From contig NC_081212.1 of assembly GCF_902713425.1 (NCBI RefSeq), forward strand, positions 9,908,261 to 9,972,260: a DNA stretch of 64,000 bases, in the 5' to 3' direction. Under the pieces are notes generated by a model, which saw only the letters and a program-made list of their open reading frames with translations, had not been told where the DNA came from and made no database searches. Source of the DNA: Acipenser ruthenus (lineage: Eukaryota). The translations under genes were made by a program, and so were the position numbers. Shown one piece after another: positions 1 through 61,214 of this stretch (position 1 is its first letter; every line of letters starts with the position of its first letter).

Positions 1-609
1 CACACAGCAGCACAGAGCCCAGGGATTGGAAATGGCTAATTTCTGATTGTAAATTTTGGAAGCACCCCTCTCGGTGGTAGGGGGAGTCAATTGGTGGCAT
101 GTAAACTGCGCACAGGAATGTGTCAGATTGGGATTGGATGATTTTTTTTTCAATTTTGAGCCATAAATGTGTCTCTCCTCTTTTAATGGGAGAGACAGTG
201 TTTTTAAGTTCCTCTTTGTACCACACAATGATGCCCCCCCGAGTCCCTGCCACGTTTGATGTGGGGGTTCTTTAGGGAGGGGACTATCAGTTCCCTGTAT
301 CCATTGGGACAGTGTGTGGACACGTCCGCACGACTCCATGTTTCATGGAGGATTATTACCTCCATGTTATATTTACAAAGTCTGGGTCTGTGCTCTTCAT
401 TCCAAAGGTTGAGGAGCACAGACCCTGGATATTCCAGCTACTTATTTTAAATGATGCCATTTTTATTAACAAAAAATCTATGGTTTATAGTAGTAAAGAA
501 ATAAGAAGTGACAAAGTTTTACATTTTCATATTTAAATTTGGTTATGATTTATATATTTATACTATATTATTGTTATTTTCCTTAATTTTGTGGTATACA
601 GGTGATACA

Positions 610-1433
610 TTAGCTAATTAGCTTAGTGCAGATAAGGTTTAGGAGATGTCTTATCTCGTTCAGCTCCGTGCTGGCGGGGTTTCCTGGCCGGCGGGACACG
701 GCTGCAGCATAGCTGTGCTGCGGGGGCTGGGGGGAATGCGGGTGACGTGGGGGTCCCTGGCGTCGCTCCTGCTGATTGGCAGCTCTGTGGTGGGGGCGTG
801 GCCTGGGGGGCTGGATGGAATGCGGGGGGCGTGGGGGTCCCAGACGCTGCCCCTGCTGACTGGCAGCTCTGTGGTGGGGGCGTGGCCTGGGGGGCTGGGG
901 GATCCTAGGAGCTCGGGGGCGGCTGGGCGTGCTCCTGGTCTCGGTGTAGGGTGTGCTGGTGAGCTCTCGGCCCAGGGCGATGTCCTTGAGGGATTTAGCA
1001 AAAAGCTTCATGCCCTCCCTGTTGAGGTGCACCTGGTCGTACATGTGGTGGGGCCTGATGTGGTGGTGGTGTGCCAGGTGCACGCTGGGTAGCAGGGCGC
1101 AGCCCCGGGACACCTCTGTGTTTATGCTGTGGATGATGTGGAAGGGCACGTCCGCTCGGGGCAGCAGGGTGGACACGATGACTTTGGCGCTGGGGTATTC
1201 TCTGGCTGCTGTTTCTGCCACCTGCCGCAGGGATCTGGCCACATCTCCTCTGTCTGCACGCAGGTTGTTGGTGCCGGTGTGGATCACAATGTATTTCGGG
1301 CTCCTCTGTCTGCTTTTGGACAGGATTTGCAGGGCGCTCTGTGTCGTTGGGCACTTGATCTTGTCGACACTTCGGCCAGGGAAAAGCCGTCTTTCGTCCA
1401 GGTACCTCCCGTTCAAATCTATTAGGATGAGCA

Positions 1434-1434
<1 letters not shown>
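610..1434 (-). mobile_element. LINE ORF1 fragment of the CR1/L2 clade with an SGNH/GDSL esterase domain and a C-terminal proline-rich tandem repeat
   Basis: 274-aa ORF with the motif IVIHTGTNNL and downstream features typical of the esterase domain in CR1-like ORF1; repeated PRPRPHHRAA blocks. Confidence 0.6.

Positions 1435-1438
<4 letters not shown>

Positions 1439-1474
<36 letters not shown>
1439..1474. repeat. (CT)n microsatellite
   Basis: direct reading. Confidence 0.95.
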
Positions 1475-1477
<3 letters not shown>

Positions 1478-1510
1478 GATCTCCTGGGCTGCCTGTGGTT
1501 ATGGGTTCAC

Positions 1511-4500
1511 CTTTCTCTCAATTCAATTCAATTCAAATTGGCTTTATTGGCACGACAATAAAAATAATTGTGTTGCCAAAGCACATACATGGCATAACCG
1601 ACTCAAATATACAGACAAATAATTTTTTTTTTATTACTAACAGTATCCCTCCTCCCTCTATATTAATACAGTAAACAGAATCCCTCCCTTCCCCTCTATA
1701 TCAAACAGTACCCCCTTCCCCCCTCTATATTAAACAGAATCCCCCTCCCTCCCTCTATTAAACAGAATCCCCCTCCCTCAATTAAACAATACCCCCTCCC
1801 TCCCTCCCTCCCTCTCTCTATATTAAACAGAATCCCTCCCTCTCTCTATATTAAACAGAATCCCTCCCTCCCTCTCTCTTTTCCCTCTCTAGTGTGACGT
1901 GTTCACGGTCTGTCCCTCAGGCTATGACAGGTCTCCACGTATTGACCAGCCAGTCTGGCTGTGTGTTTGTCTTCCCCCAGCAGGATTGACAGCTTCTGGG
2001 TATCACACATTTTTGGGAATTCTGGGACTAAAACACAGAATTTGGGGAAGAAAATGTCCCTTATGTTTTTATATTTTTCACACTGTGTCAGGAAGTGAAT
2101 CTCTGTCTCGACCTCTCCTGTCTCACAGTGACCACAGTGCCTGTTCTCCCTGGCCAGCCAGGTTTGCCTCTGTCGGCCTTTTTCAATGGCCAGGTTGTGG
2201 TCACTGAGCCGGTATTTGGTCAGGATCTGCCTCTGCTTTGTGTTTCTGACAGTTACCAGGTAATCTGCCAGGGTGTAATTTCTATTTAGGGTCCGATAGC
2301 ACTCTAGTTTGTTTTGTGTTTTAGTATTTGTATCCCAATGGTCCAGATAGGAGTGTTTCAGGTGTTTTGTAATTTGGTTTACACTAATTGGAATTGTTTT
2401 TGCAGTGATGTCCTGAAGCTGACTGATGTCAGTGTTGCTCAGCTCAGTGAGCTTCAGGACCAGCTGGCTGAGGGGACTCTTTTCTGGGCTGAGCTCTTGG
2501 TATTGCAGGGCTTTATGATGGAGTGAGTTTGGGTCACTAGTTTTTAGATGAATCCAGTATTTTAATGCTCTTTTTAGGATGTTAATAATCAATGGATAAA
2601 GGCCTAATTCAGCCCTGCATACATTGTTTGGTGTTTTTCTTTGTAATCTCATGATATTTTTGCAGAACTCTGCATGCAGGGTTTCTGTGGGGTGTTTGTC
2701 CCATTTTGTGTAGTCCTGGTTGGTGATTGGGCCCCACACTTCACTGCCATAGAGAGCAATTGGCTGAATTACACTTTCAAAAATTTTGAGCCAAATTTTG
2801 ACGGGGGGATTTATATTGTAGAGCCTCCTCTTTATGGCATAAAAAGCCCTGCGTGCTTTCTCCTTTAGTGCATTCACTGCCAGGTTAAAGCTCCCTGATG
2901 CACTGATGGTCAGACCCAGGTATGTGTAGCTGCTGGTGTGCTCTAGGGTGGTGTTGCCTATAGTGAAGTGGTACTTATTTCCCTGAGATCTGGCTTTCTT
3001 CTGGAATATCATGACTCTGGTCTTGTTCATGTTTACTGTCAGGGCCCAGGTCTGACAGTACTGCTCTAGCAGTGCCAGGCTCTGCTGCAGCCCCTGCTCT
3101 GTGGGTGACAACAGGACCAGGTCATCTGCATAGAGCAGGAACTTGACTTCAGTGTCATGTAGAGTGAGGCCAGGGGCTGCAGACTGCTCCAACACTGTGG
3201 CCAGCTCATTGATATATATGTTGAACAGTGTTGGGCTCAGACTGCAGCCCTGTCTCACCCCACGCCCTTGTGTGAAGAATTCTGTTCTTTTGTTGCCAAT
3301 TTTCACACTACACTTATTTTCTGAGTACATTGATTTTATGATGTCATATACTTTACCCACTACACCACTTTGAAGAAGTTTAAGAAATAGTCCTTTATGC
3401 CATATTGAATCAAATGCCTTTTTAAAGTCTATAAATTAAGCGAATATTTTTCCTTTATTAGTTTGATGGACGTGTTTATTGATTAGGGTGTGTAGGGTGT
3501 AAACATGATCAGAAGTGCGGTGTTTTGGTAGAAATCCAATCTGACTTACTCAGGACACTGTGTTCGGTAAGGAAGGCCAGTATCCGGGCGTTAATGATAC
3601 TGCAGAACACCTTCCCCAGATTACTGCTCACACAGATGCCCCGGTAGTTATTGGGGTCGAATTTGTCTCCACTTTTATATATGGGTGTTATAAGCCCTTG
3701 GTTCCAGGCCTCAGGGAAATACCCAGCTCTCAGTACAAGATTGAGGAGTTTGAGCAGGGCCTCCTGCAGCTTGGGGCTGCTGTGTTTGAGCATCTCAGCG
3801 TTGATGCTGTCAGGTCCACTTGCTTTTTTTGATTTGAGGGCCTTGAGTTTATCATTCAGCTCCTCCACCGTGATTGGGGTGTCTAGGGGGTTCTGATTGT
3901 CCTTAATACAGGATTCTAAATTTTTTAGTTTTTCACAAATGGCATTTTGAGTTTTTTGTTCTTTGTTTTGTATTTCTTTGTAAAGGTTTTCAAAATGTTT
4001 TTTCCAAATGTTTCCATTTTGGATGGCCAATTCTTCTTTTTTTGTTGAATTTAGGTTGTTCCAGGTTTCCCAAAAATGATTTTGGTTTATTGACTCCTCA
4101 ATTTCGCTGAGTTGTTTATTAATATGGTCTTGTTTTTTATTTCTTAGAGTGTGTTTGTATTGATTCAGTGCCTCACAGTATCTGAGGCGTAAATCTGGGC
4201 TGTCTGGATCTTTATGTTTTTGATTGGATAGCTGTCTTAGTTTTTCCCTTCTAGTTTTACATTCTTCATCAAACCACTTTTTTTTGAATTTATTCTTTTG
4301 GTTGTTTTTCCGATTTACTATTTTTAAATCAGATTTTTCTGCTGCTTTTCTAAATATGTTATTCAAATCTTTTACAGCCAGAGTTACTCCTGTTTTTGTG
4401 TGTTGATACTGTGTGTTTTGAAATGTTTGTATTAGGGTTTCTATTTCATTGGTGCCAATTGCTTCTTTGTATATTTCTGTGCTGTTTGGAGCCCATCTGT

Positions 4501-4576
4501 AGGAATGGTTTAGATTGTACAGCTTACAGGGCTGTGTCTTTGTGTTGTTGATCTGCTCTGTTCTTTTTATGAACAC
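1511..4576 (-). mobile_element. 5'-truncated CR1/L2-clade LINE: ORF2 RT in two frames (3509-4576 N-terminal with NYRGI motif, 1903-3360 with YADD motif and a C-terminal Cys/His knuckle), and a 3' tail of 30-bp tandem repeats (1640-1900)
   Basis: RT motifs PNNYRGICVSS, FLLYADDLVLLS and HCGHCETGEVETEIHFLTQC; tandem (ccctccctctatattaaacagaat)n 3' tail; flanked on both sides by (TC)n plus the rcc1l exon-start motif. Confidence 0.8.
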
Positions 4577-4582
4577 AGTGAT

Positions 4583-4915
<333 letters not shown>

Positions 4916-5045
4916 ATCTCCTGGGCTGCCTGTGGTTATGGGTTCACCTTGCTGTCCTCCAGGACATGTGACCTGACCAAGGTGTGGGGGATGGGACTGA
5001 ACAAGGACTCCCAGCTGGGCTTCCAGCGCAGCCGCAGAGAACGCA
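4916..5045 (+). CDS. rcc1l: RCC1-like protein internal coding exon (ISWAACGYGFTLLSSRTCDLTKVWGMGLNKDSQLGFQRSRRER)
   Basis: AG acceptor at 4914-4915 directly after a 160-bp (TC)n; GTGAGT donor at 5046; RCC1-repeat motif; matches the human RCC1L segment ISSAACGYGFTLLSSKTADVTKVWGMGLNKDSQLGF as I recall it. Confidence 0.85.
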
Positions 5046-5273
5046 GTGAGTCCCAGTGCTCATCTCCCAAAGAATACTTTCTGAAGCCTATAACTAGGCT
5101 TGTTCCTTTTGGACGTTTATTTTTCAGAGACTCACAAAATGCCATAATAAATCACTCGCCTTTAAAATTGTACTGGGGTTCTTCATTGTAACACCATAAA
5201 ACCTAATTATACAACAGATTGTTGGTGTGTGTGCCTCAGTGACGTGGCCCCTCCTGTCTCACTTTCTCCCCAG

Positions 5274-8542: not shown

Positions 8543-9830
8543 GTGAGGGGAGTGAGAGAAACAGGGGTTAGACATGAACACCAAGAGATGTACACGGCAC
8601 CAAATACCAGCTTTCTTTTATAGGAGCCCAGTTCTCAGTCAGTGTCACCAGGCATACTAGTTTTATGAGCTATAAAAAAACTTGGATAAAACCTTACAAA
8701 CTGTATTTAGCGGAAAGATCTTACTAAATTAATGGAAATAAATATCAAGAATTATGAACACTCAATACATCGACCAAAAAGAAAATATTTCCAAGTTGTT
8801 TTCCCTTTAATGGAACTACCACAGGGTCTATTTGCAGAATTGGTCTATTGTCATTATTGTATTCATGTGCATTGAATCCTATGTAGGCCCACTTTTTCTC
8901 ATTCTTTATACAGTATTTCTTTGAATTTAAGATGCACTTTTTGAACCATTTTTTGCTTCTCAAAAATAGCCTGCTTCTTAAATTTGAGTACAGTGTATGA
9001 TGCGTGTATTAAAATCGCAGACAAAATACATGACTACCAGAGTACACAAACAGCAACGTGACTGACTGCCGAGAAAAGACGAACCAAAGTGTTACTGCTC
9101 CATCTCGAATCATCCACGACATACAGGCAGCCGTTTTCAAAGAAGCGTCATTAGCTTCCTGAGGAGTTCAAAGAGCTTTTACAATTTCAGCGTTTCTAAC
9201 AATTGGCACCAGCTCGGACAGATAGGAAAAGCTGATCAGACCCCCGTATTTTTCGACATGCCAAGCAATACCACAGTTCACAAATTGGGAGAAAAACAGG
9301 TGTGAGTAATCCCAACTGGAAATGAGAAGCTCCAGTGCTCTGTGTGAAGGCAGACGACCGCAGACTGCCTCCATAATTGAGGTTGTATCTTTGTAAATGC
9401 AGATTTATTTGATGTTTTATCTTTTTTGAGGTGGTGAGTTTGGGCTGCGTCTTAAATTTGAGGATGTCTCAAATTTGAAGGAATGCAGTACTTCACATGC
9501 AGTTTAGCCTAACCAGCTTCAGCCTTCAGTATGTTGTTCAACATTATGAGATGTGATGGACATTAAAAGATGATATTGTTGAAAGATGGTGCCGCCCCTT
9601 GAAGGCACAATTCCCATCTTATAGAGTAGACCCTTGTGCTTTAAACACCCATGTGCCAGTCCTGGATGCCCATGGTGGACCAACACCACAGTGTAAGGCA
9701 GGTTTATATTTACCTTTCCTCGACTATATATCATGCTGTCTCTGCAGACGACTGCAGCTTGTACATTTTAAAATGAAAATGTTCAACGTCTCAGTTCTCA
9801 GTGTGATGTATTTTGCTTTCCTGTGTGTAG

Positions 9831-10200: not shown

Positions 10201-10211
10201 GTGTCTCTTAC

Positions 10212-11712
10212 TTTATTTAGTGGAGGTGGGCGTGTGTCTGTGTCACACTTTATATAGTGGAGGTGGGTGTGTGTCTGTGTGTCACACTTTATATAGTGGA
10301 GACGGGTGTGTGTCTGTGTCACACTTTATATAGTGGAGACGTGTGTAGTCAGTCTGTCACACTTTATATAGTGGAGACGGGTGTGTGTCTGTGTGTCACA
10401 CTTTATATAGTGGAGGTGGGTGTGTGTCTGTGTGTCACTTTATATAGTGGAGACGGGTGTGTGTCTGTGTGTCACACTTTATATAGTGGAGACGGGTGTG
10501 TGTCTGTGTGTCGCACTTTATATAGAGGAGACGGGTGTGTGTCTGTGTCACACTTTATATAGAGGAGACGGGTGTGTGTCTGTGTGTCGCACTTTATATA
10601 GAGGAGACGGGTGTGTGTCTGTGTCACACTTTATATAGTGGAGACGGGCGTGTGTCTGTGTGTCACACTTTATATAGTGGATACGGGTGTGTGTCTGTGT
10701 CACACTTTATATAGTGGAGACGTGTGTAGTCAGTCTGTCACACTTTATATAGTGGAGACGGGTGTGTGTCTGTGTGTCACACTTTATATAGTGGAGGTGG
10801 GTGTGTGTCTGTGTGTCACTTTATATAGTGGAGACGGGTGTGTGTCTGTGTGTCACACTTTATATAGAGGAGACGGGTGTGTGTCTGTGTCACACTTTAT
10901 ATAGAGGAGACGGGTGTGTGTCTGTGTCACACTTTATATAGAGGAGACGGGTGTGTGTCTGTGTCACACTTTATATAGTGGAGACGGGTGTGTGTCTGTG
11001 TCACACTTTATATAGTGGAGACGGGCGTGTGTCTGTGTCACACTTTATATAGTGGAGACGTGTGTAGTCAGTCTGTCACACTTTATATAGTGGAGACGGG
11101 TGTGTGTCTGTGTGTCACACTTTATATAGTGGAGGTGGGTGTGTGTCTGTGTGTCACTTTATATAGTGGAGACGGGTGTGTGTCTGTGTGTCACACTTTA
11201 TATAGTGGAGACGGGTGTGTGTCTGTGTGTCGCACTTTATATAGAGGAGACGGGTGTGTGTCTGTGTCACACTTTATATAGAGGAGACAGGTGTGTGTCT
11301 GTGTGTCGCACTTTATATAGAGGAGACGGGTGTGTGTCTGTGTCACACTTTATATAGTGGAGACGGGCGTGTGTCTGTGTGTCACACTTTATATAGTGGA
11401 TACGGGTGTGTGTCTGTGTCACACTTTATATAGTGGAGACGTGTGTAGTCAGTCTGTCACACTTTATATAGTGGAGACGGGTGTGTGTCTGTGTGTCACA
11501 CTTTATATAGTGGAGACGGGTGTGTGTCTGTGTGTCACACTTTATATAGTGGAGACGGGTGTGTGTCTGTGTCACTTTATATAGTGGAGACGGGTGTGTG
11601 TCTGTGTCACACTTTATATAGTGGAGACGGGTGTGTGTCTGTGTGTCACACTATATAGAGGAGACGGGTGTGTGTCTGTGTCACACTTTATATAGTGGAG
11701 ACAGGTGTGTGA
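10212..11712. repeat. 37-bp satellite (cactttatatagtggagacgggtgtgtgtctgtgtgt)n, about 40 copies, with a higher-order period of 720-730 bp
   Basis: direct reading; supplied ORF artefacts recur at 719-731-bp spacing (10257/10988, 10420/11139, 10611/11330). Confidence 0.9.
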
Positions 11713-12344
11713 AATGTCTGTAACTCTAAAAATTGAAATTGTAACTGTAGCAAAAATGTTCAGGAAAACATGGGTTGACTTGGGGCTTGTTTTTATTTTA
11801 TTTTAAATAAAAAAATCATTCATCCTGCTTGCTCAGTCATTCAGCCTCCTTTGGCTTAAAAAACAAACAAAAAAAAAACAAGTGTGCTTTGTTTAAACTA
11901 AAATGTTCCTTGTAAAATCATCCATACTTGCTTTGAAATCTGCCTCACCTTTGTCTGGATACATTTGTTGGTCCAGTGACTAGCATGCCGCTTATAGGAG
12001 TGCCTATCTGGTGCATTGCACGCATGGTTGAGTGATTGCATACCAGTTCAGAGTGGGGTGCTCGGCAGAGCGGTCAGTTCTACTCTATCTGGAGAACCAC
12101 TTACTCAATTGTCATGAAACTTGGTATTTAACATTATTTAGCCTACATGATTGAGAGTAAAATATTGTGGGGATATCCTCTAATTCTTATTCTATACTAA
12201 TCTGTGATGCTGTTGATACATTATGGTCACTTTTTCATCATGTTGATAGCTCTAATTTAGCATTTCCAGTGGTGGCGAGGATGGATGGTGCTCGTTCTGT
12301 CTTGTACTCTGATATTCCTTCTCTGTGGTGTGTGTTTGTTTCAG

Positions 12345-30257: not shown

Positions 30258-30352
30258 TAACACTCACAAGAGCATGGTCGAATTTGAAGGTGCTGATGTA
30301 GTAGGCAGGAATGTCAGCAGCAGCCAGGGATTCAGATATCTGAGCCACGATC
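30258..30352 (-). CDS. castor2: CASTOR/GATS-like protein coding exon (DECGIVAQISESLAAADIPAYYISTFKFDHAL)
   Basis: minus-strand acceptor CTCTCTCTCAG at 30353-30363, which is also the first unit of the 8.6-kb tandem array; donor GTGAGT at 30257-30252; matches human DECGIVAQIAGPLAAADISAYYISTFNFDHAL. Confidence 0.88.
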
Positions 30353-33300
30353 CCACACTCATCTGAGAGAGAGACAGAGAGGCAGACAATCACACATGAT
30401 CCCACACTCATCTGAGAGGCAGACAATCACACACTATCCCACACTCATCTGAGAGAGAGACAGAGAGGTAGACAATCACACACGATCCCACACTCATCTG
30501 AGAGAGAGACAGAGAGGCAGACAATCACACATGATCCCACACTCATCTGAGAGGCAGACAATCACACACTATCCCACACTCATCTGACAGGCAGACAATC
30601 ACACACGATCCCACACTCATCTGAGAGAGAGACAGAGAGGTAGACAATCACACACGATCCCACACTCATCTGAGAGAGAGACAGAGAGGCAGACAATCAC
30701 ACATGATCCCACACTCATCTGAGAGGCAGACAATCACACACTATCCCACACTCATCTGACAGGCAGACAATCACACACGATCCCACACTCATCTGAGAGA
30801 CAGAGGTAGACAATCACACATGATCCCACACTCATCTGAGAGAGAGACAGAGAGGTAGACAATCACACACGATCCCACACTCATCTGAGAGACAGAGAGG
30901 TAGACAATCACACACGATCCCACGCTCATCTGAGAGAGAGACAGAGAGGTAGACAATCACACACGATCCCACACTCATCTGAGAGAGAGACAGACAATCA
31001 CACACGATCCCACACTCATCTGAGAGAGAGACAGAGAGGTAGACAATCACACACGATCCCACACTCATCTGAGAGAGAGACAGAGAGGTAGACAATCACA
31101 CACGATCCCACACTCATCTGAGAGAGAGACAGAGAGGTAGACAATCACACACGATCCCACACTCATCTGAGAGAGAGACAGAGAGGCAGACAATCACACA
31201 CGATCCCACACTCATCTGAGAGACAGACAATCACACACGATCCCACACTCATCTGAGAGAGACAGAGGCAGACAATCACACACGATCCCACACTCATCTG
31301 AGAGGTAGACAATCACACACGATCACACACTCATCTGAGAGAGAGACAGAGAGGTAGACAATCACACATGATCCCACACTCATCTGAGAGAGAGACAGAC
31401 AATCACACTCGATCCCACACTCATCTGAGAGAGAGACAGAGAGGTAGAGAATCACACACAATCCCACACTCATCTGAGAGAGACAGACAATCACACACGA
31501 TCCCACTCATCTGAGAGAGAGACAGAGAGGTAGACAATCACACACGATCCCACACTCATCTGAGAGACAGAGGTAGACAATCACACACGATCCCACACTC
31601 ATCAGAGAGAGACAGAGAGGTAGACAATCACACACGATCCCACACTCATCTGAGAGAGAGACAGACAATCACACACGATCCCACACTCATCTGAGAGAGA
31701 GACAGAGAGGTAGACAATCACACACGATCCCACACTCATCTGAGAGAGAGACAGAGAGGTAGACAATCACACACGATCCCACACTCATCTGAGAGAGACA
31801 GACAATCACACACGATCCCACACTCATCTGAGAGAGAGACAGACAGACAATCACACACGATCCCACACTCATCTGAGAGAGACAGACAATCACACACGAT
31901 CCCACTCATCTGAGAGAGAGACAGAGAGGCAGACAATCACACACGATCCCACACTCATCTGAGAGGTAGACAATCACACACGATCCCACACTCATCTGAG
32001 AGAGAGACAGACAATCACACACGATCCCACACTCATCTGAGAGAGAGACAGAGAGGCAGACAATCACACACGATCCCACACTCATCTGAGAGAGAGACAA
32101 TCACACACGATCCCACACTCATCTGAGAGAGAGACAGACAATCACACACGATCCCACACTCATCTGAGAGAGAGACAGAGAGGTAGACAATCACACATGA
32201 TCCCACACTCATCTGAGAGAGACAGACAATCACACACGATCCCACACTCATCTGAGAGGTAGACAATCACACACGATCCCACACTCATCTGAGAGAGAGA
32301 CAATCACACACGATCCCACACTCATCTGAGAGAGAGACAGAGAGGCAGACAATCACACACGATCCTACACTCATCTGAGAGAGAGACAGAGAGGTAGACA
32401 ATCACACACGATCCCACACTCATCTGAGAGAGAGGCAGACAATCACACACGATCCTACACTCATCTGAGAGAGACAGAGAGGCAGACAATCACACACGAT
32501 CCTACACTCATCTGAGAGATAGACAGACAATCACACTCGATCCCACACTCATCTGAGAGAGAGACAGAGAGGTAGACAATCACACACGATCCCACACTCA
32601 TCTGAGAGAGAGAGACAGACAATCACACACGATCCCACACTCATCTGAGAGAGAGACAGAGAGGTAGACAATCACACACGATCCCACACTCATCTGAGAG
32701 AGAGACAGAGAGGTAGACAATCACACAGGATCCCACACTCAACTGAGAGAGAGACAGACAATCACACACGATCCCACACTCATCTGAGAGAGAGACAGAG
32801 AGGTAGACAATCACACACGATCCCACACTCATCTGAGAGAGAGACAGACAATCACACTCGATCCCACACTCATCTGAGAGAGAGAGAGAGAGGTAGACAA
32901 TCACACACGATCCCACACTCATCTGAGAGAGACAGACAATCACACACGATCCCACTCATCTGAGAGAGAGACAGACAATCACACACGATCCCACACTCAT
33001 CTGAGAGTTAGACAATCACACACGATCCCACACTCATCTGAGAGAGAGACAATCACACACGATCCCACACTCATCTGAGAGACAGACAATCACACGATCC
33101 CACACTCATCTGAGAGAGAGACAGACAGACAGACAATCACACACGATCCCACACTCATCTGAGAGAGAGACAGAGAGGTAGACAATCACACACGATCCCA
33201 CACTCATCTGAGAGAGAGACAGAGAGGCAGACAATCACACATGATCCCACACTCATCTGAGAGGCAGACAATCACACACTATCCCACACTCATCTGACAG

Positions 33301-36300
33301 GCAGACAATCACACACGATCCCACACTCATCTGAGAGACAGAGGTAGACAATCACACATGATCCCACACTCATCTGAGAGAGAGACAGAGAGGTAGACAA
33401 TCACACACGATCCCACACTCATCTGAGAGACAGAGAGGTAGACAATCACACACGATCCCACACTCATCTGAGAGGTAGACAATCACACACGATCCCACAC
33501 TCATCTGAGAGAGAGACAATCACACACGATCCCACACTCATCTGAGAGACAGACAATCACACGATCCCACACTCATCTGAGAGAGAGACAGACAGACAGA
33601 CAATCACACACGATCCCACACTCATCTGAGAGGTAGACAATCACACACGATCCCACACTCATCTGAGAGAGAGACAGAGAGGCAGACAATCACACACGAT
33701 CCCACACTCATCTGAGAGGTAGACAATCACACACGATCCCACACTCATCTGAGAGAGAGACAGACAATCACACACGATCCCACACTCATCTGAGAGAGAG
33801 ACAGAGAGGCAGAGAATCACACACGATCCCACACTCATCTGAGAGAGAGACAGACAATCACACACGATCCCACACTCATCTGAGAGAGAGACAGACAATC
33901 ACACACGATCCCACACTCATCTGAGAGAGAGACAGAGAGGCAGACAATCACACACGATCCTACACTCATCTGAGAGAGACAGAGAGGCAGACAATCACAC
34001 ACGATCCCACACTCATCTGAGAGGTAGACAATCACACACGATCCCACACTCATCTGAGAGAGAGACAGAGAGGTAGACAATCACACACGATCCCACACTC
34101 ATCTGAGAGAGAGACAGACAGACAGACAATCACACACGATCCTACACTCATCTGAGAGAGAGACAGACAATCACACTCGATCCCACACTCATCTGAGAGA
34201 AAGACAGAGAGGTAGAGAATCACACACGATCCCACACTCATCTGAGAGAGAGACAGAGAGGTAGACAATCACACACGATCCCACACTCATCTGAGAGAGA
34301 GACAGACAGACAATCACACACGATCCCACACTCATCTGAGAGAGAGACAGAGGTAGACAATCACACACGATCCCACACTCATCTGAGAGAGACAGACAAT
34401 CACACACGATCCCACTCATCTGAGAGAGAGACAGTGAGGCAGACAATCACACACGATCCCACACTCATCTGAGAGGTAGACAATCACACACGATCCCACA
34501 CTCATCTGAGAGAGAGACAGACAATCACACACGATCCCACACTCATCTGAGAGAGAGACAGAGAGGCAGACAATCACACACGATCCCACACTCATCTGAG
34601 AGAGAGACAGACAATCACACACGATCCCACACTCATCTGAGAGAGAGACAGACAATCACACACGATCCCACACTCATCTGAGAGAGAGACAGAGAGGCAG
34701 ACAATCACACACGATCCTACACTCATCTGAGAGAGACAGAGAGGCAGACAATCCCACACGATCCCACACTCATCTGAGAGAGAGACAGACAATCACACTC
34801 GATCCCACACTCATTGAGAGAAAGACAGAGAGGTAGAGAATCACACACGATCCCACACTCATCTGAGAGAGAGACAGACAATCACACACGATCTCACACT
34901 CATCTGAGAGAGAGACAGAGAGGTAGACAATCACACACGATCCCACACTCATCTGAGAGAGAGACAGACAATCACACACGATCCCACACTCATCTGAGAG
35001 AGAGACAGACAATCACACTCGATCCCACACTCATCTGAGAGAAAGACAGAGAGGTAGAGAATCACACATGATCCCACACTCATCTGAGAGAGAGACAGAC
35101 AATCACACACGATCCCACACTCATCTGAGAGAAAGACAGAGAGGTAGAGAATCACACACGATCCCACACTCATCTGAGAGAGAGACAGACAATCACACAC
35201 GATCCCACACTCATTGAGAGAAAGACAGAGAGACAGACAATCACACACGATCCCACACTCATCTGAGAGAGAGACAGAGAGGCAGACAATCACACACGAT
35301 CCTACACTCATCTGAGAGAGACAGAGAGGCAGACAATCACACACGATCCCACACTCATCTGAGAGGTAGACAATCACACACGATCCCACACTCATCTGAG
35401 AGAGAGACAGAGAGGTAGACAATCACACACGATCCCACACTCATCTGAGAGAGAGACAGACAGACAGACAATCACACACGATCCTACACTCATCTGAGAG
35501 AGAGACAGACAATCACACTCGATCCCACACTCATCTGAGAGAAAGACAGAGAGGTAGAGAATCACACACGATCCCACACTCATCTGAGAGAGAGACAGAG
35601 AGGTAGACAATCACACACGATCCCACACTCATCTGAGAGAGAGACAGAGGTAGACAATCACACACGATCCCACACTCATCTGAGAGAGACAGACAATCAC
35701 ACACGATCCCACTCATCTGAGAGAGAGACAGAGAGGCAGACAATCACACACGATCCCACACTCATCTGAGAGGTAGACAATCACACACGATCCCACACTC
35801 ATCTGAGAGAGAGACAGACAATCACACACGATCCCACACTCATCTGAGAGAGAGACAGAGAGGCAGACAATCACACACGATCCCACACTCATCTGAGAGA
35901 GAGACAATCACACACGATCCCACACTCATCTGAGAGAGAGACAGACAATCACACACGATCCCACACTCATCTGAGAGAGAGACAGAGAGGCAGACAATCA
36001 CACACGATCCCACACTCATCTGAGAGAGAGACAGAGGTAGACAATCACACACGATCCCACACTCATCTGAGAGAGACAGACAATCACACACGATCCCACT
36101 CATCTGAGAGAGAGACAGAGAGGCAGACAATCACACACGATCCCACACTCATCTGAGAGAGAGACAGAGGTAGACAATCACACACGATCCCACACTCATC
36201 TGAGAGAGACAGACAATCACACACGATCCCACACTCATTTGAGAGGTAGACAATCACACACGATCCCACACTCATCTGAGAGAGAGACAGACAATCACAC

Positions 36301-39003
36301 TCGATCCCACACTCATTGAGAGAAAGACAGAGAGGTAGAGAATCACACACGATCCCACACTCATCTGAGAGAGAGACAGACATTCACACACGATCTCACA
36401 CTCATCTGAGAGAGAGACAGAGAGGTAGACAATCACACACGATCCCACACTCATCTGAGAGAGAGACAGACAATCACACACGATCCCACACTCATCTGAG
36501 AGAGAGACAGACAATCACACTCGATCCCACACTCATCTGAGAGAAAGACAGAGAGGTAGAGAATCACACACGATCCCACACTCATCTGAGAGAGAGACAG
36601 ACAATCACACACGATCCCACACTCATCTGAGAGAAAGACAGAGAGGTAGAGAATCACACACGATCCCACACTCATCTGAGAGAGAGACAGACAATCACAC
36701 ACGATCCCACACTCATTGAGAGAAAGACAGAGAGACAGACAATCACACACGATCCCACACTCATCTGAGAGAGAGACAGAGAGGCAGACAATCACACACG
36801 ATCCTACACTCATCTGAGAGAGACAGAGAGGCAGACAATCACACACGATCCCACACTCATCTGAGAGGTAGACAATCACACACGATCCCACACTCATCTG
36901 AGAGAGAGACAGAGAGGTAGACAATCACACACGATCCCACACTCATCTGAGAGAGAGACAGACAGACAGACAATCACACACGATCCTACACTCATCTGAG
37001 AGAGAGACAGACAATCACACTCGATCCCACACTCATCTGAGAGAAAGACAGAGAGGTAGAGAATCACACACGATCCCACACTCATCTGAGAGAGAGACAG
37101 AGAGGTAGACAATCACACACGATCCCACACTCATCTGAGAGAGAGACAGACAGACAATCACACACGATCCCACACTCATCTGAGAGAGAGACAGAGGTAG
37201 ACAATCACACACGATCCCACACTCATCTGAGAGAGACAGACAATCACACACGATCCCACTCATCTGAGAGAGAGACAGAGAGGCAGACAATCACACACGA
37301 TCCCACACTCATCTGAGAGAGAGGCAGACAATCACACACGATCCCACACTCATCTGAGAGAGAGACAGAGAGGTAGACAATCACACACGATCCCACACTC
37401 ATCTGAGAGAGAGACAGACAGACAATCACACACGATCCCACACTCATCTGAGAGAGACAGACAATCACACACGATCCCACTCATCTGAGAGAGAGACAGA
37501 GAGGCAGACAATCACACACGATCCCACACTCATCTGAGAGGTAGACAATCACACACGATCCCACACTCATCTGAGAGAGAGACAGACAATCACACACGAT
37601 CCCACACTCATCTGAGAGAGAGACAGAGAGGCAGACAATCACACACGATCCCACACTCATCTGAGAGAGAGACAATCACACACGATCCCACACTCATCTG
37701 AGAGAGAGACAGACAATCACACACGATCCCACACTCATCTGAGAGAGAGACAGAGAGGCAGACAATCACACACGATCCTACACTCATCTGAGAGAGACAG
37801 AGAGGCAGACAATCCCACACGATCCCACACTCATTTGAGAGGTAGACAATCACACACGATCCCACACTCATCTGAGAGAGAGACAGACAATCACACTCGA
37901 TCCCACACTCATTGAGAGAAAGACAGAGAGGTAGAGAATCACACACGATCCCACACTCATCTGAGAGAGAGACAGACAATCACACACGATCTCACACTCA
38001 TCTGAGAGAGAGACAGAGAGGTAGACAATCACACACGATCCCACACTCATCTGAGAGAGAGACAGACAATCACACACGATCCCACACTCATCTGAGAGAG
38101 AGACAGATAATCACACTCGATCCCACACTCATCTGAGAGAAAGACAGAGAGGTAGAGAATCACACACGATCCCACACTCATCTGAGAGAGAGACAGACAA
38201 TCACACACGATCCCACACTCATCTGAGAGAAAGACAGAGAGGTAGAGAATCACACACGATCCCACACTCATCTGAGAGAGAGACAGACAATCACACACGA
38301 TCCCACACTCATTGAGAGAAAGACAGAGAGGTAGAGAATCACACACGATCCCACACTCATCTGAGAGAGAGACAGACAATCACACACGATCTCACACTCA
38401 TCTGAGAGAGAGACAGAGAGGTAGACAATCACACACGATCCCACACTCATCTGAGAGAGAGACAGAGAGGTAGACAATCACACACGATCCCATACTCATC
38501 TGAGAGAGAGACAGACAATCACACACGATCCCACACTCATCTGAGAGAGAGACAGACAATCACACTCGATCCCACACTCATCTGAGAGAAAGACAGAGAG
38601 GTAGAGAATCACACACCATCCCACACTCATCTGAGAGAGAGACAGACAATCACACACGATCCCACACTCATCTGAGAGAGAGACAGAGAGGTAGACAATC
38701 ACACACGATCCCACACTCATCTGAGAGAGAGACAGACAATCACACACGATCCCACACTCATCTGAGAGAGAGACAGAGAGGTAGACAATCAAACACGATC
38801 CCACACTCATCTGAGAGAGAGACAGAGAGGTAGACAATCACACACGATCCCACACTCATCTGAGAGAGACAGACAATCACACACGATCCCACACTCATCT
38901 GAGAGAGAGACAGAGAGGTAGACAATCACACACGATCCCACACTCATCTGAGAGAGAGACAGACAATCACACACGATCCCACACTCATCTGAGAGACAAT
39001 CAC
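30353..39003 (-). repeat. 8.6-kb tandem array (about 170 units of 40-57 bp) whose unit is a copy of the castor 3' splice site (polypyrimidine + CAG) plus the first 17 nt of the exon (ATGAGTGTGGGATCGTG = DECGIV); higher-order period about 1.5 kb
   Basis: minus-strand unit atgagtgtgggatcgtg|tgtgattgtctacctctctgtctctctctcag; every supplied minus-strand ORF in the region reads …SDECGIVCDCLPLCLSLR; identical ORFs recur at 1502-bp spacing (34949/36451; 34814/36316/37912 on +). Confidence 0.9.
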
Positions 39004-40484: not shown

Positions 40485-41098
40485 TGTGACGAAGTGCCCG
40501 CCCCTGTGTGTATTTTGTGTGTTATGTGTTGTATGTTGCGTGTGTTAATGTTGGTGTATAGTCATTGGTACACGGGATATAAACGGGTCTGTGTTTCACG
40601 TGTATTTAAAAATGTAGATTTGTATTTAGGCACGAGGAGGGCACAAATCACTTCACGTGCTGGTTAAATGTAATATATGAGCACGGGGTTTGCACAGAAT
40701 TAATTCACGTGCTGGGATTCAAGTGAATAATTAATTAGTAATTGAATCCCAGCACAACAGTATATATAGATGCACATTTCTTTCACTCAGGGTTGGGTGT
40801 TCGGTGAGTGGAGAACGGGAGAGAGAGAAGGAGAAAATAAAACAAAGTAAAGTAATTAGAAGTGTTTTCACTCACCGTGTTTGTTCGTCTGTCTGTTTAA
40901 GTGTAGTACGTTTTGTTTGTCTTTTTATTTTGGCGTATAGTGCCGTGTCCCGTGTTTTGTGTTAAAACCTTTTATTTTCTGTGCTGTTTATTAAATGCTG
41001 AGCGAAACCATTCGCTCAGCTCCACCAAACCACACCTCTCTGTCTGTTTATTTCCTGCTTCTGGTCTGACGCCACCGACTCCGGCCGTCTTTGTGACA
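40485..41098 (+). mobile_element. solo LTR (614 bp, TG…CA) of the LTR family at 56766-60419, with 5-bp TSD AGCAT (40480-40484 and 41099-41103); inserted into a CR1-like 3' fragment
   Basis: about 85% identical to the reverse complement of the LTRs at 56766-57377 and 59809-60419; flanking CR1 fragment is contiguous across the insertion (…cagtgattcAGCAT / AGCATcaacaacttaactag…). Confidence 0.8.
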
Positions 41099-56765: not shown

Positions 56766-59700
56766 TGTCACAAAGACGGCCAGAGTGGGTGGCGTCAGAC
56801 CAGAAAAGGAATACACAGACAGACGGTGGTGATGATGAGCTGAGTGCAATGGCTGCACTCAGCGTTTATTAACAAATAAAAAGGTTTAACAGTACAAAAA
56901 CAGGACACGGCACTGGTAGCCAAAAGAAACATATAAACAAAACGGACTAAACACTAAACAGACGGTGCAGGACAGACAGACGAACACGGCGAGTACAAAC
57001 AACTATTATATTTACGATCTTTTCGCTTTTTAACTCTCCTTCTCCACACCCGTTCTCCACTCCCGAACACCTAACCCTGACTGACTAAAAATGTGCCTAT
57101 TTATACTGTTGTGCTGGGATTCAATTACTAATTAATTATTCACTTGAATCCCAGCACGTGAATTAATTCTGTGCAACCCCGTGCTCACATAATAGATTTA
57201 ACCAGCACGTGAAGTGATTTGTGCTCTCCTCGTGCCTAAATACAAATCTACACTTTTTAAATACACGTGAATCACAGACCTGTTTATATCCCGTGTACCA
57301 ATCTATACACCAACATTTACACACGCAACACGCAACACATAACACAAATGCACACAGGGGCGGGGCGCTTTGCCACATATACCCCCCCTTGTGCGCAGCA
57401 CACATGGCCTCAACGGCCACCTCCCCCCTTAAAAATCCAGCAGTCCAGGACAAAGTCTCGGGCTGGGAAGGGAGGCTTCAGTGGGCCCATGGCTGGCCAT
57501 GCTGTCAGCACCCCTGCCGGTAGTGGCACGGCTGACAGCCTGTTGGTCCCATCCTGCAGCGAAAAAGCTGCGGGGGCAGGTGGTCCCCCGACCTCCCCCT
57601 TCTTCGTAGCCGGCAGCTCCCTCCTGTGGGGCTCCGGCCACAAGACCTCCTGCAGCGAAACTGCTGCTGGGGAAAGTGGTCTCCAGACCTCGTCCCCCTT
57701 CTTTGTAGCCGGTAGCTCCCTTTGGTGGGGCTCCGACCACAGTACTGCCGGCAGCGAAGAAGCTGCAGTGGGAGCAGGTCTCCGGACCTCCCCCACGATC
57801 TCCGGCAGCGAAACTGCTGCAGTGGGAGCAGGTCTCCGGACCTCCCCCACGATCTCCGGCAGCGAAACTGCTGCAGTGGGAGCAGGTCTCCGGACCTCCC
57901 CCACGATCTCCGGCAGCGAAACTGCTGCAGTGGGAGCAGGTCTCCTGACCTCCCCCACGATCTCCGGCAGCGAAACTGCTGCAGTGGGAGCAGGTCTCCA
58001 GACCTCCTCCCCCTTCTTCGTGGCCGACAGCTCCCCTTTCTGGGGCTCCGGCCACCGTACTCCCCGTGGTGGAGGTATGGGAAGCAGAGACAGCTCCTGC
58101 TGTTCTGCTTCTGGCAGTGGCAGAGGCAGAGGCAGCTCCTCTGCTCCTGGAAGTGGCAGAGGCAGCTCCTGCTCCTCTGCTCCTGGAAGTGGCAGAGGCA
58201 GCTCCTGCTCCTTTGCTCCTGCCGGTGTAGGTGGCGGAGGCAGAGGCAGCTCCGGCTGCTCTGCTCCTGCCGTTGTAGGTGGCGGAGGCAGAGGCAGCTC
58301 CTGCTCCTCTGCTCCTGGAAGTGGCAGAGGCAGCTCCGGCTGCTCTGCTCCTGTCGGTGAAGGTGGGAGCAGCGTGTAGTCTCCTGCCGATGGAGGTGGG
58401 AGCAGCGTGTAGTCTCCCCCTTTTTCAGGGGACTGGTGCTGCTCTGCCTCTCTTGCAGCGGACTGGTGCGGCTCTGCTTCTGAAGGGGAAACCAGCAGGC
58501 ATTCTTCCTCTGCTGGTTGTGCTGGGGAAACCAGCAGGCATTCTTCCTCTGCTGGTTGTGCTGGGGAAACCAGCAGGCATTCTTCCTCTGCTGGTTGTGC
58601 TGGGGAAACCAGCAGGCATTCTTCCTCTGCTGGTTGTGCTGGGGAAACCAGCAGGCATTCTTCCTCTGCTGGTTGGGCTGGGGAAACCAGCAGGCATTCT
58701 TCCTCTGCTGGTTGTGATGGGGAAACCAGCAGGCATTCTTGCTCTGCTGGTGAAGGTGGGAACAGCTGCCTCTCAGGCTTCGGATTCCCGCGGTCCCCCC
58801 GTCTGGGCGCTGGACGCTCGCGGTCCCCCCGTCTGGGCGCTGGACGCTCGCGGTCCCCCCGTCTGGGCGCTGGTTCCTCCTCTTCATACTGGGTGGGGCA
58901 TATGGCTAACGTGTGCCCATAAGCCCCACAGCCAGGGCATAACTCTGCTGCGAGGTTCTTTAAAAAAACCTCCCAGCCATCATCCTCGACCTCCTCCCTT
59001 TTGGGCTGTGGACGCCCCGACTCCTCCCTTTTGGGCTGTGGACACTCGGGTTCCCCCCACTCAGGCGTAGGACGTTCGGGTTCCTCCCACTCAGGCGTAG
59101 GACGCTCGGGCTCCTCCCACTCGGGCTGTGGACGCTCAGGCTCCTCCCACTCGGGCTGTGGACGCTCAGGCTCCTCCCACTCGGGCTGTGGACGCTCAGG
59201 CTCCTCCCACTCGGGCTGTGGACGCTCAGGCTCCTCCCACTCGGGCTGTGGACGCTCAGGCTCCTCCCACTCGGGCTGTGGACGCTCAGGCTCCTCCCAC
59301 TCGGGCTGTGGACGCTCAGGCTCCTCCCACTCAGGTACTGGAGAGGGCAGCGACTGCTCCTCTCCCTCTTGCTCACTGGAAGGCATCCCTCCCATGTCTG
59401 CAGCTAGGTAACCCAGCACCACAATGGTGAGGTCACGAACGGATGCCGGGTTGTGCTGTTGCTCCCAGTCCTCCCATCATTTCCCATCTCGCATCTGCAG
59501 TGCGTGAATAACCATGGGGAGGTCACTGGCGAAGTTCCCCTCGGGGTGCACCAGCCAGTCCCATATTTCCCGGGACGGTGGGGAACCCGGTGGCAGTGGG
59601 GGTAGAGGGGTGGCTACTGCCCCGTTGTGGCTGTCCTCCTCCCAGCAGGATGAGGGCTGCAGCTGTTGTTGTTGCTGCTGCTGCTTCTGCTGCTTCCTGC

Positions 59701-60419
59701 AGCTCTTTCTTCCCATCCTCGCTTTACTATTTTTTTTTTTTTTTTTTCACAAAACCCCCTCTCCTGGTCTGACGCTTGGAGGCGCTATTATCCCACGATG
59801 ACACCACGTGTCACAAAGACGGCCAGAGTGGGTGGCGTCAGACCAGAAAAGGAATACACAGACAGACGGTGGTGATGATGAGCTGAGTGCAATGGCTGCA
59901 CTCAGCGTTTATTAACAAATAAAAAGGTTTAACAGTACAAAAACAGGACACGGCACTGGTAGCCAAAAGAAACATATAAACAAAACGGACTAAACACTAA
60001 ACAGACGGTGCAGGACAGACAGACGAACATGGTGAGTACAAACAACTATTATATTTACGATCTTTTCGCTTTTTAACTCTCCTTCTCCACACCCGTTCTC
60101 CACTCCCGAACACCTAACCCTGACTGACTAAAAATGTGCCTATTTATACTGTTGTGCTGGGATTCAATTACTAATTAATTATTCACTTGAATCCCAGCAC
60201 GTGAATTAATTCTGTGCAACCCCGTGCTCACATATTACATTTAACCAGCACGTGAAGTGATTTGTGCTCTCCTCGTGCCTAAATACAAATCTACACTTTT
60301 TAAATACACGTGAAACACAGACCCGTTTATATCCCGTGTACCAATCTATACACCAACATTTACACACGCAACACGCAACACATAACACAAATGCACACAG
60401 GGGCGGGGCGCTTTGCCAC
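56766..60419 (-). mobile_element. young non-autonomous LTR retrotransposon (3654 bp): 611/612-bp LTRs at 56766-57377 and 59809-60419, TG…CA termini, 5-bp TSD ATGCT, PBS-like tggtgtcatcgtgggat next to the 5' LTR, polypurine tract aaggggggg next to the 3' LTR, and a single gag-like ORF
   Basis: the two LTR copies are about 99% identical; TSD ATGCT at 56761-56765 and 60420-60424; internal ORF has a CCHC knuckle CPGCGAYGHTLAIC; no pol. Confidence 0.85.
57410..59422 (-). CDS. gag-like ORF (670 aa) of the LTR element: one CX2CX4HX4C zinc knuckle and extensive internal tandem peptide repeats (PEWEEPERPQ x10, PAQPAEEECLLVS x7, RRPAPTAAVSLPEIVGEV x4)
   Basis: longest ORF in the window; lies between PBS and PPT of the LTR element; overlapping + strand ORFs are alternate-frame artefacts. 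Confidence 0.6.
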   Translation of the reverse strand: MVLGYLAADMGGMPSSEQEGEEQSLPSPVPEWEEPERPQPEWEEPERPQPEWEEPERPQPEWEEPERPQPEWEEPERPQPEWEEPERPQPEWEEPERPQPEWEEPERPTPEWEEPERPTPEWGEPECPQPKREESGRPQPKREEVEDDGWEVFLKNLAAELCPGCGAYGHTLAICPTQYEEEEPAPRRGDRERPAPRRGDRERPAPRRGDRGNPKPERQLFPPSPAEQECLLVSPSQPAEEECLLVSPAQPAEEECLLVSPAQPAEEECLLVSPAQPAEEECLLVSPAQPAEEECLLVSPAQPAEEECLLVSPSEAEPHQSAAREAEQHQSPEKGGDYTLLPPPSAGDYTLLPPSPTGAEQPELPLPLPGAEEQELPLPPPPTTAGAEQPELPLPPPPTPAGAKEQELPLPLPGAEEQELPLPLPGAEELPLPLPLPEAEQQELSLLPIPPPRGVRWPEPQKGELSATKKGEEVWRPAPTAAVSLPEIVGEVRRPAPTAAVSLPEIVGEVRRPAPTAAVSLPEIVGEVRRPAPTAAVSLPEIVGEVRRPAPTAASSLPAVLWSEPHQRELPATKKGDEVWRPLSPAAVSLQEVLWPEPHRRELPATKKGEVGGPPAPAAFSLQDGTNRLSAVPLPAGVLTAWPAMGPLKPPFPARDFVLDCWIFKGGGGR

Positions 60420-61214
60420 AATGCTATATTGGGAAACCATACTGTACAGCAACTTGCATTTAGACCTTCTAATCTTCTGTTTTTATTTCCCAGAGTGGTT
60501 TAAGTGTGGTAACAATCAAACTGATATTATCAGAACCTCATTAACTCCCATTATATTCTGTCCAGGACATTTTAATGCGGTGATAAGAAGCAGAGTGACA
60601 TTAAGTGATATTAAGAATGGTCAAGATACAAACTGTCAGACAGGCCCTCCAATTTGAACCACAGCTACATACATCTCATTATTCATGGATTGTTTTTGGT
60701 CTGGTATTGCCATAGAAGAAGGATTCTGTAAAACATTTATTTGCAAACCAAACTTCCTGCTTGATAAATGTACCGGCACCTGTTTCACAACACCAGGGTT
60801 TCAGTAGCCATGGTGACAAATAAAGGTCACCTGACAACCAGACTGTAATGGCAATGATTCACTCTGCACACACAAACACACAGAAAACTGCCTGGCAGTA
60901 AATTTGACCTGGTGGTTACAACTGAGGGACTGAGGGAGACAGTGTGGCCTACTGTTTTCAACAGAGGGGTTGGGAGGGAGGAAATGCGGCCTAGAGGTTA
61001 GATTTTAGTGACTGAGAAGAAAGCAGTGTTGTAATTCAAGCTGAGGGACTAAAATGTTTAAAGCGACCCGTAAAATGCATTAATCCGTTAAAATGAAAAT
61101 ACAGGTTTGCTAGAATGAGTTTCTTTCAAAACTGCACACTTGAGACCTATGTAGCTAATGGAAGTGCATGACAGGGAAGACTTTTGAAATTATTTTGGTA
61201 GGTACACTTTAGGG

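Follow-up and report, generated by a model that had tools for sequence, protein, structure and literature searches.

We analysed a stretch of 64,000 nucleotides from Acipenser ruthenus (NCBI RefSeq assembly GCF_902713425.1, contig NC_081212.1, positions 9,908,261 to 9,972,260 of the forward strand; from here on, the window), in which the gene rcc1l carries, directly before the body of one of its exons, a tandem array of units that repeat the acceptor site and the start of that exon. One of these units, U1, stands apart from the other four (U2 to U5) on the far side of LINE1, a long interspersed nuclear element (LINE) lying antisense to the gene. Judged by its alignment, U1 is a genuine homologue of the other units and a member of an old tandem array, and it would derive from that array irrespective of whether LINE1 entered a spacer between two units or duplicated a whole unit upon integration. 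Comparison with related genomes supports an array older than LINE1. In what seems to us the probable course of events, the array came first, LINE1 was inserted into one of its (CT)n spacers, and further changes followed in the A. ruthenus lineage.

For the comparison, orthologous loci of Huso huso (L002), A. oxyrinchus (L003), Polyodon spathula (L004 and the short contig L001) and alligator gar (L007) were used, while the array lies beyond the coverage of both an older A. ruthenus contig (L005, which starts at window 5470) and an A. sinensis contig (L006, which matches from window 11986 only). The original prediction, made from the letters of the window alone, had placed a fifth copy of the (CT)n plus rcc1l exon-start unit upstream of the LINE, and this copy proved to be real. 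The 36-nt core of the unit, CCAGATCTCCTGGGCTGCCTGTGGTTATGGGTTCAC, occurs in five exact copies with 0 mismatches (1475-1510, 4746-4781, 4804-4839, 4858-4893 and 4912-4947), no copy was found on the minus strand of the window, and 100 dinucleotide-preserving shuffles yielded 0 matches even when 3 mismatches were allowed. The (CT)n leader together with U1 (1435-1517) is 98% identical to 4706-4788, where 80% had been taken as the lower limit for homology, and the part outside the microsatellite (1475-1513) agrees with the unit at 4746 in 39 of 39 positions. The order of the sequence is (CT)20 at 1435-1474, CCAGATCTCCTGGGCTGCCTGTGGTTATGGGTTCACCTT at 1475-1513, TCTCTC at 1514-1519 and then AATTCAATTCAATTCAAATTGGC, so that the predicted unit stood, but the limits of tract, unit and LINE had to be shifted, the LINE extending from 1520 to 4591 instead of from 1511 to 4576. 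U1 begins and ends where array units do, with a (CT)n leader before it and CTT plus a (T/G)CTC(TC) spacer after it, as in the units of Polyodon and Huso, and window 1461-1519 is identical to L001 262-320 of Polyodon in 58 of 59 positions. The homology of U1 can thus be read directly from the alignments. That the upstream copy might be no real homologue, owing to chance similarity or to faulty assembly, is hardly credible: the older A. ruthenus contig does stop short of the array, in a region that is hard to assemble, but an exact 36-nt match has a chance expectation of 0, and since units are likewise found on both sides of the orthologous LINE in an independent Huso huso assembly, the layout is not an artefact of assembly.

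The translations of the exons in the window (those downstream being located by tblastn) are those of the A. ruthenus RCC1-like G exchanging factor-like protein XP_058854343.1, including a private Cys (SRTCDL) present in no other sturgeon sequence. At window 4966-4967 two CpG transitions distinguish A. ruthenus, whose codons there read ACA TGT (Thr-Cys), from Huso, A. oxyrinchus, Polyodon and its own ohnologue, all with ACG CGT (Thr-Arg); the result is an Arg-to-Cys change private to A. ruthenus RCC1L. Since residues 1-88 are encoded by a single exon in the loci of A. oxyrinchus and Polyodon, the array is located at the boundary between intron 1 and exon 2; exon 1 of A. ruthenus was positioned to the left of the window. 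Each unit consists of a polypyrimidine tract, a CAG acceptor and the first 35-41 nt of exon 2. The reading frame of exon 2 stays open through U3 and U4 (open reading frame, ORF, 4583-5191), and use of their acceptors would add 18 or 36 residues to the protein (ISWAACGYGFTLLSLSFQ), while the 58-nt U2 would shift the frame. U1 retains the polypyrimidine tract and the CAG, followed by antisense LINE sequence. Among the annotated proteins no use of any upstream acceptor, that of U1 included, was seen. The array resembles known tandem duplications of a 3' splice site with the start of its exon, in that every rcc1l unit has the polypyrimidine tract, the CAG and exon sequence and the 54-nt units are open and in frame, but it differs from them in that 3.4 kb of antisense LINE lie between U1 and the exon, and an in-frame product is no longer possible from U1. 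Downstream of LINE1 the functional acceptor and three spare copies are left.

The sequence between U1 and U2 had been predicted to be a single minus-strand LINE of CR1/L2 type, truncated at its 5' end near the N-terminus of the reverse transcriptase (RT). A single LINE of this type it is: an RVT_1 domain was found in the window copy as well as in the ORFs of its orthologue in Huso (L002 5058-9711), with which it is colinear. Window 1435-4591 aligns to L002 4972-8151 at 95.6% identity, the shared 3.1 kb of LINE1 reaches 96.4%, and the flanking intron and exons show 95.0%; the orthology of LINE1 is accordingly observed in two species. In place of poly(A), LINE1 ends in a short microsatellite, of which the A. 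ruthenus copy has (GAATT)3 and the Huso copy (GAATTT)n; the hairpin UUGGCA...UGCCAA predicted at the 3' end was no better than those of shuffled sequences (z -0.30). No further copies of either LINE of this locus were detected in the window or in the fetched loci. The predicted truncation, in turn, did not hold. The identity between A. ruthenus and Huso ends at ...gatttggctgtg (ggctgtg|), from where A. ruthenus passes directly into (CT)77, while beyond this breakpoint Huso goes on for 1,560 bp (L002 8152-9711) with an endonuclease, an AT-rich spacer and an ORF1 of putative esterase type, followed by (CT)n and the first downstream unit. The Huso endonuclease (Exo_endo_phos, E 4.7e-8, above the cutoff; L002 8084-8920, minus strand) belongs to the part deleted from the window copy. 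Since the order of the Huso element is that of one LINE in intact order, Huso represents the ancestral state. By this comparison the 5' end of LINE1 at 4591 is the product of a later deletion of ~1.56 kb in A. ruthenus, in which endonuclease and ORF1 were lost, and not an original truncation. This deletion probably removed the first downstream unit as well, since Huso has five units downstream of LINE1 and A. ruthenus has four.

In Huso, units were found upstream of LINE1 at L002 4849 and 4929 and downstream at 9749, 9837, 9897, 9975 and 10033, the last being the real exon. (CT)n is present at both junctions of the Huso element, with ~90 nt of it at the junction where A. ruthenus has TCTCTC. 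The arrays of A. oxyrinchus, with 10 contiguous units (L003 11838-12367), and of Polyodon, with 6 full units and 1 partial one (L004 ~11321-11651; also in L001), are both free of a LINE. In sturgeons and paddlefish together the number of units ranges from 5 to 10. In alligator gar intron 1 is short and an array is lacking, the acceptor being single (L007 1850-1910). The claim that the array predates the LINE, and the proposal to look for an array lacking the LINE in related genomes, thus found support in two empty sites, and the absence of LINE1 beside an existing array is a direct observation in both outgroups. In a nuclear phylogeny A. sturio and A. oxyrinchus form the basal sturgeon clade, and A. 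ruthenus and H. huso both fall into the Atlantic clade (PMC6356338). Since LINE1 is common to A. ruthenus and Huso, the array is free of it in A. oxyrinchus and Polyodon, and gar has no array, the array would have arisen in the acipenseriform stem, that is, in the lineage leading to sturgeons and paddlefish, and the insertion of LINE1 would fall between the branching-off of the A. oxyrinchus lineage and the divergence of A. ruthenus from Huso. The sequence directly upstream of the array differs in all four species, so that it offers no anchor for the first unit. Likewise, since the variants of the units are lineage-specific and all A. ruthenus cores are identical, no unit of a LINE-free array can be assigned to U1 as its one-to-one counterpart.

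We propose that in the common ancestor of A. ruthenus and Huso LINE1 would have integrated antisense into a (CT)n spacer between two units, with one or two of them ending up upstream and the others, including the functional acceptor, downstream. In the subsequent history of the A. ruthenus lineage, the ~1.56 kb 5' part of LINE1 would have been deleted, probably along with the first downstream unit, the adjoining (CT)n would have expanded to 77 repeats, and a second LINE, LINE2, unrelated to LINE1 but of the same group, would have come to lie directly against the (CT)20 before U1. Since the functional acceptor stays downstream of LINE1, splicing to exon 2 would be untouched and the insertion was probably neutral. 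This neutrality is a part of the explanation that we infer, as is insertion into the spacer with a short, undetectable target-site duplication (TSD) instead of a long one. Insertion into a spacer seems reasonably likely, as (CT)n is found at both Huso junctions, the TCTCTC at the A. ruthenus 3' junction is spacer sequence, and Huso has two upstream units and not one. Moreover, for LINEs of the L2 and CR1 clades the commonest TSD lengths are 3-5 bp, with ~5 bp determined experimentally for ZfL2-1 (PMC4245944); a TSD of 3-5 bp inside (CT)n would be invisible, and one of at least 75 bp would be unusual. Several points weigh against this explanation. The two Huso units that flank LINE1 (L002 4929 and 9749) share a private G-to-A change (CTGGACTGCC) present in no other unit of any species, which is what a long TSD would lead one to expect, but which tandem duplicates lying side by side would show as well. 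In the LINE-free array of A. oxyrinchus it is the first unit that has a pure (CT)n leader and CACCTT-GCGCGC and resembles U2, so that U1 looks like an extra unit. Besides, orthology of individual units is not establishable, as the arrays are changing fast, and the comparison covers four species only.

These points bear on a different course of events, which we regard as possible but rather unlikely, in which LINE1 entered beside the first or second unit, at widely staggered nicks, and thereby duplicated a whole unit together with its (CT)n leader and (TC)n trailer, at least 75 bp in length; U1, and the Huso unit at L002 4929, would then be the upstream copy of this duplication and not older members of the array. 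A repeat does adjoin both ends of the LINE (the 98% identity between 1435-1517 and 4706-4788 in A. ruthenus), the two Huso flanking units have their private variant in common, the unit with the pure (CT)n leader and CACCTT comes first in the LINE-free A. oxyrinchus array, and among LINE integrations a minority with TSDs of more than 20 bp is recognised as a class of its own (PMC4245944). The locus is like that class in having a direct repeat of at least 75 bp adjoining both ends of LINE1, but it differs in that the repeat is also the unit of a pre-existing tandem array, which the LINE need not have made, and in that one junction in the window is secondary. Since the A. ruthenus 5' junction was created by the deletion, U1 and U2 are not a valid pair of TSD halves. 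Their common pure (CT)n leader and CACCTT were considered as evidence for a TSD and rejected, since they are the ancestral state of the unit, seen also in Polyodon and Huso units. Of the 6 nt that follow CACCTT, 2 are different in U1 and U2, although the 79 nt before them are identical; the 'A' variant of Huso is missing from U1; a further Huso unit lies upstream at L002 4849; and sharing of variants between adjacent units is frequent, as in units 7-9 of A. oxyrinchus and in the b-c-d/b'-c'-d' pattern of Polyodon. The peak of TSD length at 3-5 bp for the L2/CR1 clades likewise speaks against so long a duplication. It is even less probable that LINE1 landed upstream of the whole array and that units were moved to its far side afterwards by unequal exchange, gene conversion or a small segmental duplication. 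The arrays are indeed dynamic, with 5-10 copies, higher-order duplications in Polyodon and five identical cores in A. ruthenus, and their immediate upstream flank is different in every species, but such copying is an extra event without any gain, it must predate the split of A. ruthenus and Huso, both of which have units upstream of LINE1, and the (CT)n at both Huso junctions is what simple insertion into a spacer leads one to expect.

The other side of U1 had been described as abutting a fragment of a LINE ORF1 esterase (610-1434). Both the likeness to an esterase and the position stood, but the fragment is not an isolated one, since the N-terminus of an endonuclease continues at 2-433; both belong to LINE2, a second LINE that lies in the window with its 5' part and continues past position 1. 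In tblastn searches with the Huso LINE1 proteins, the endonuclease matched window 433-2 with 44.5% amino acid identity, and the ORF1 fragment (L002 9176-9709, for which no Pfam match was obtained) aligned to the LINE2 ORF1 at 1230-610 with 38.8% (E 9e-36). Since LINE2 has only 69-71% nucleotide identity to the 5' part of Huso LINE1, it is a different element. The possibility that LINE2 is the displaced 5' part of LINE1, moved by rearrangement or tandem duplication, was rejected on these values (69-71% nucleotide and 39-45% amino acid identity, versus ~96% across the rest of LINE1). LINE2 is missing from the 4.8 kb that precede the units of Huso and, by this distribution, it is either an insertion in the A. 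ruthenus lineage or a loss in Huso. The proline-rich C-terminal part of its ORF1 (window 722-902) contains an 84-nt tandem repeat (2.2 copies, 87% matches) which is not present in the Huso LINE1 ORF1.

The presence of two LINEs at this place had led to the suggestion that the array is a hotspot for insertion. Both elements are antisense to rcc1l, both break off within ORF1, and in both the 5' end directly adjoins (CT)n beside an array unit; no other elements of their group were detected in the 64-kb window or in ~235 kb of fetched related loci. By chance, a second independent LINE would come to lie this close, at a distance of a few hundred bases in 64 kb, in only about one case in a hundred, an estimate that is post hoc and is based on two events. 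What stands of the suggestion is that two different LINEs lie on (CT)n beside units, which is suggestive only; it is doubtful that esterase-type CR1/L2 LINEs of sturgeons land preferentially in the (CT)n-rich array at the boundary of rcc1l intron 1 and exon 2, and the idea is weakened further by the fact that the microsatellites may have grown after insertion. If true, it would imply that integration is biased towards long (GA)n.(TC)n tracts, either by the elements themselves or by the DNA structure that these tracts have. LINEs that target microsatellites were reportedly described in fish by Kojima and Fujiwara in 2004, Kibi being specific for (TC)n and Koshi for (TTC)n; these belong to another clade and have strict site specificity throughout the genome. 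The sturgeon LINEs resemble them in ending on (CT)n/(GA)n tracts, with two different elements set against the same (CT)n-rich array, but differ in that there are just two events at one locus, where the microsatellites may have expanded after insertion.

To judge from domain content and ends, both elements probably work like the LINEs of the CR1 group that carry an esterase ORF1, and are such elements. The LINE2 ORF1 matches structures of PAF-AH and PDB entry 4c1b, deposited as 'ORF1-encoded protein', which we take to be the esterase of ZfL2-1 ORF1p. Like esterase-ORF1 LINEs of the CR1 group, for instance zebrafish ZfL2-1, the sturgeon elements have an ORF1 that is putatively SGNH/PAF-AH-like, an apurinic/apyrimidinic (AP) endonuclease followed by RT in ORF2, a short 3' microsatellite with no poly(A), and truncated 5' ends in antisense orientation within an intron; they differ in that the usual TSD of 3-5 bp is invisible here, with (CT)n on both flanks. 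In a protein database search with the RT ORF of LINE1 the best match was 69% identical and no match came from a sturgeon, and at such identities the assignment reaches the CR1/L2 group, with the CR1 and L2 clades undivided. In a 2026 survey, the L2 elements recovered from Acipenseriformes lack ORF1 (PMC13343379), and sturgeon LINEs with an esterase ORF1 would be either members of the CR1 clade or an ORF1-bearing L2 type missing from that survey. That a LINE lands in an intronic microsatellite or tandem array, with decay setting in afterwards, is nothing new as an event; what is new is the locus. The features are compiled in Table 1.

Table 1. Positions of the array units and of the two LINEs in the window, with the evidence for each (TRF, Tandem Repeats Finder; UTR, untranslated region)
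Feature	Position	Strand	Evidence
LINE2 (5' part), a further esterase-type CR1/L2-group LINE, continuing beyond the left window edge	1-1434	-	profile, PDB and tblastn matches
LINE2 AP endonuclease N-terminus, with two frameshifts	2-433	-	tblastn with Huso LINE endonuclease
LINE2 AT-rich spacer	~434-609	-	lies between ORF1 and endonuclease
LINE2 ORF1 esterase	610-1434	-	Pfam Lipase_GDSL_2, E 9e-6, below curated cutoff; PDB matches PAF-AH, 4c1b
(CT)20 polypyrimidine tract before U1	1435-1474	+	TRF period 2, 20.5 copies, 94% matches
U1: pseudo-acceptor CCAG (1475-1478) and 35 nt equal to the start of rcc1l exon 2, ending CACCTT	1475-1513	+	exact core match; alignment with 20 other units from four species
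TCTCTC, remnant of the (TC)n inter-unit spacer at the LINE1 3' junction	1514-1519	+	matches spacer GCTC(TC)n after CACCTT in Polyodon and Huso units
LINE1, putatively esterase-type CR1/L2-group LINE, antisense to rcc1l	1520-4591	-	RVT_1, E 3.5e-23; TRF; orthologous Huso copy
LINE1 3' microsatellite tail, (AATTC)3 on + strand	1520-1534	-	TRF; read as (GAATT)3 on element strand
LINE1 3' UTR minisatellite, 28-nt	1632-1875	-	TRF
LINE1 RT C-terminal ORF	1903-3360	-	RVT_1, E 3.5e-23
LINE1 upstream ORF	3509-4576	-	ORF
(CT)77, pure, between the deletion-made 5' end of LINE1 and U2	4592-4745	+	TRF period 2, 77.5 copies, 100% matches
U2, 58 nt	4746-4803	+	pseudo-acceptor array unit
U3, 54 nt	4804-4857	+	pseudo-acceptor array unit
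U4, 54 nt	4858-4911	+	pseudo-acceptor array unit
U5: real acceptor CCAG (4912-4915) and rcc1l exon 2 (4916-5045)	4912-5045	+	translation equals XP_058854343.1

Being essentially free of homoplasy, the shared LINE1 is a clean marker by which A. ruthenus and Huso huso are grouped together and A. oxyrinchus is excluded. The locus also offers a relative order of events, in which an array formed in the acipenseriform stem would have been followed by the insertion of LINE1 and then by the lineage-specific deletion, the growth of (CT)n and LINE2. The gene appears to tolerate kilobases of LINE a few dozen bases from its functional acceptor when spare copies of the acceptor buffer the site. There is no hint of a novel mechanism, nor of a function that U1 might have upstream of LINE1, and the value of the locus is mainly that of a worked example of an ordinary, probably neutral rearrangement of an intron. 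The findings also explain a truncated gene model of Huso, KAK6475330.1 (L002 10001 onward), which begins inside the array (MGSPCSLSLSFQISWAACG...). This start is almost certainly an artefact of annotation, LINE1 and other insertions having put exon 1 more than 10 kb away.

In the flank upstream of the array, A. oxyrinchus has ~29 tandem copies of a 27-nt motif, aaacacacagcctgtactgcagggcag (L003 ~11030-11816), replacing the sequence found there in Polyodon, in which the motif is single-copy (L004 10790-10831). The 4.8 kb upstream of the Huso units contains a repeat element with two 620-bp terminal direct repeats and 1.3 kb of unmatched sequence. This repeat element (L002 332-3548; window 56766-60420 on the minus strand, and ~40497-41098) has terminal direct repeats of ~620 bp that are 99.4% identical in Huso and 99% identical in the window, and it encloses several minisatellites with periods of 30-65 nt. 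Its copy in intron 1 of Huso rcc1l is not found at that place in the other species and looks like a recent insertion of long terminal repeat type. Within the window, a large minisatellite with a period of 37/39 nt and ~40 copies occupies 10210-11711 in an intron of rcc1l, its copy number differing from that of the older A. ruthenus assembly (L005), and a multi-kb block of 41-49-nt repeats lies downstream of the gene at ~30277-37000.

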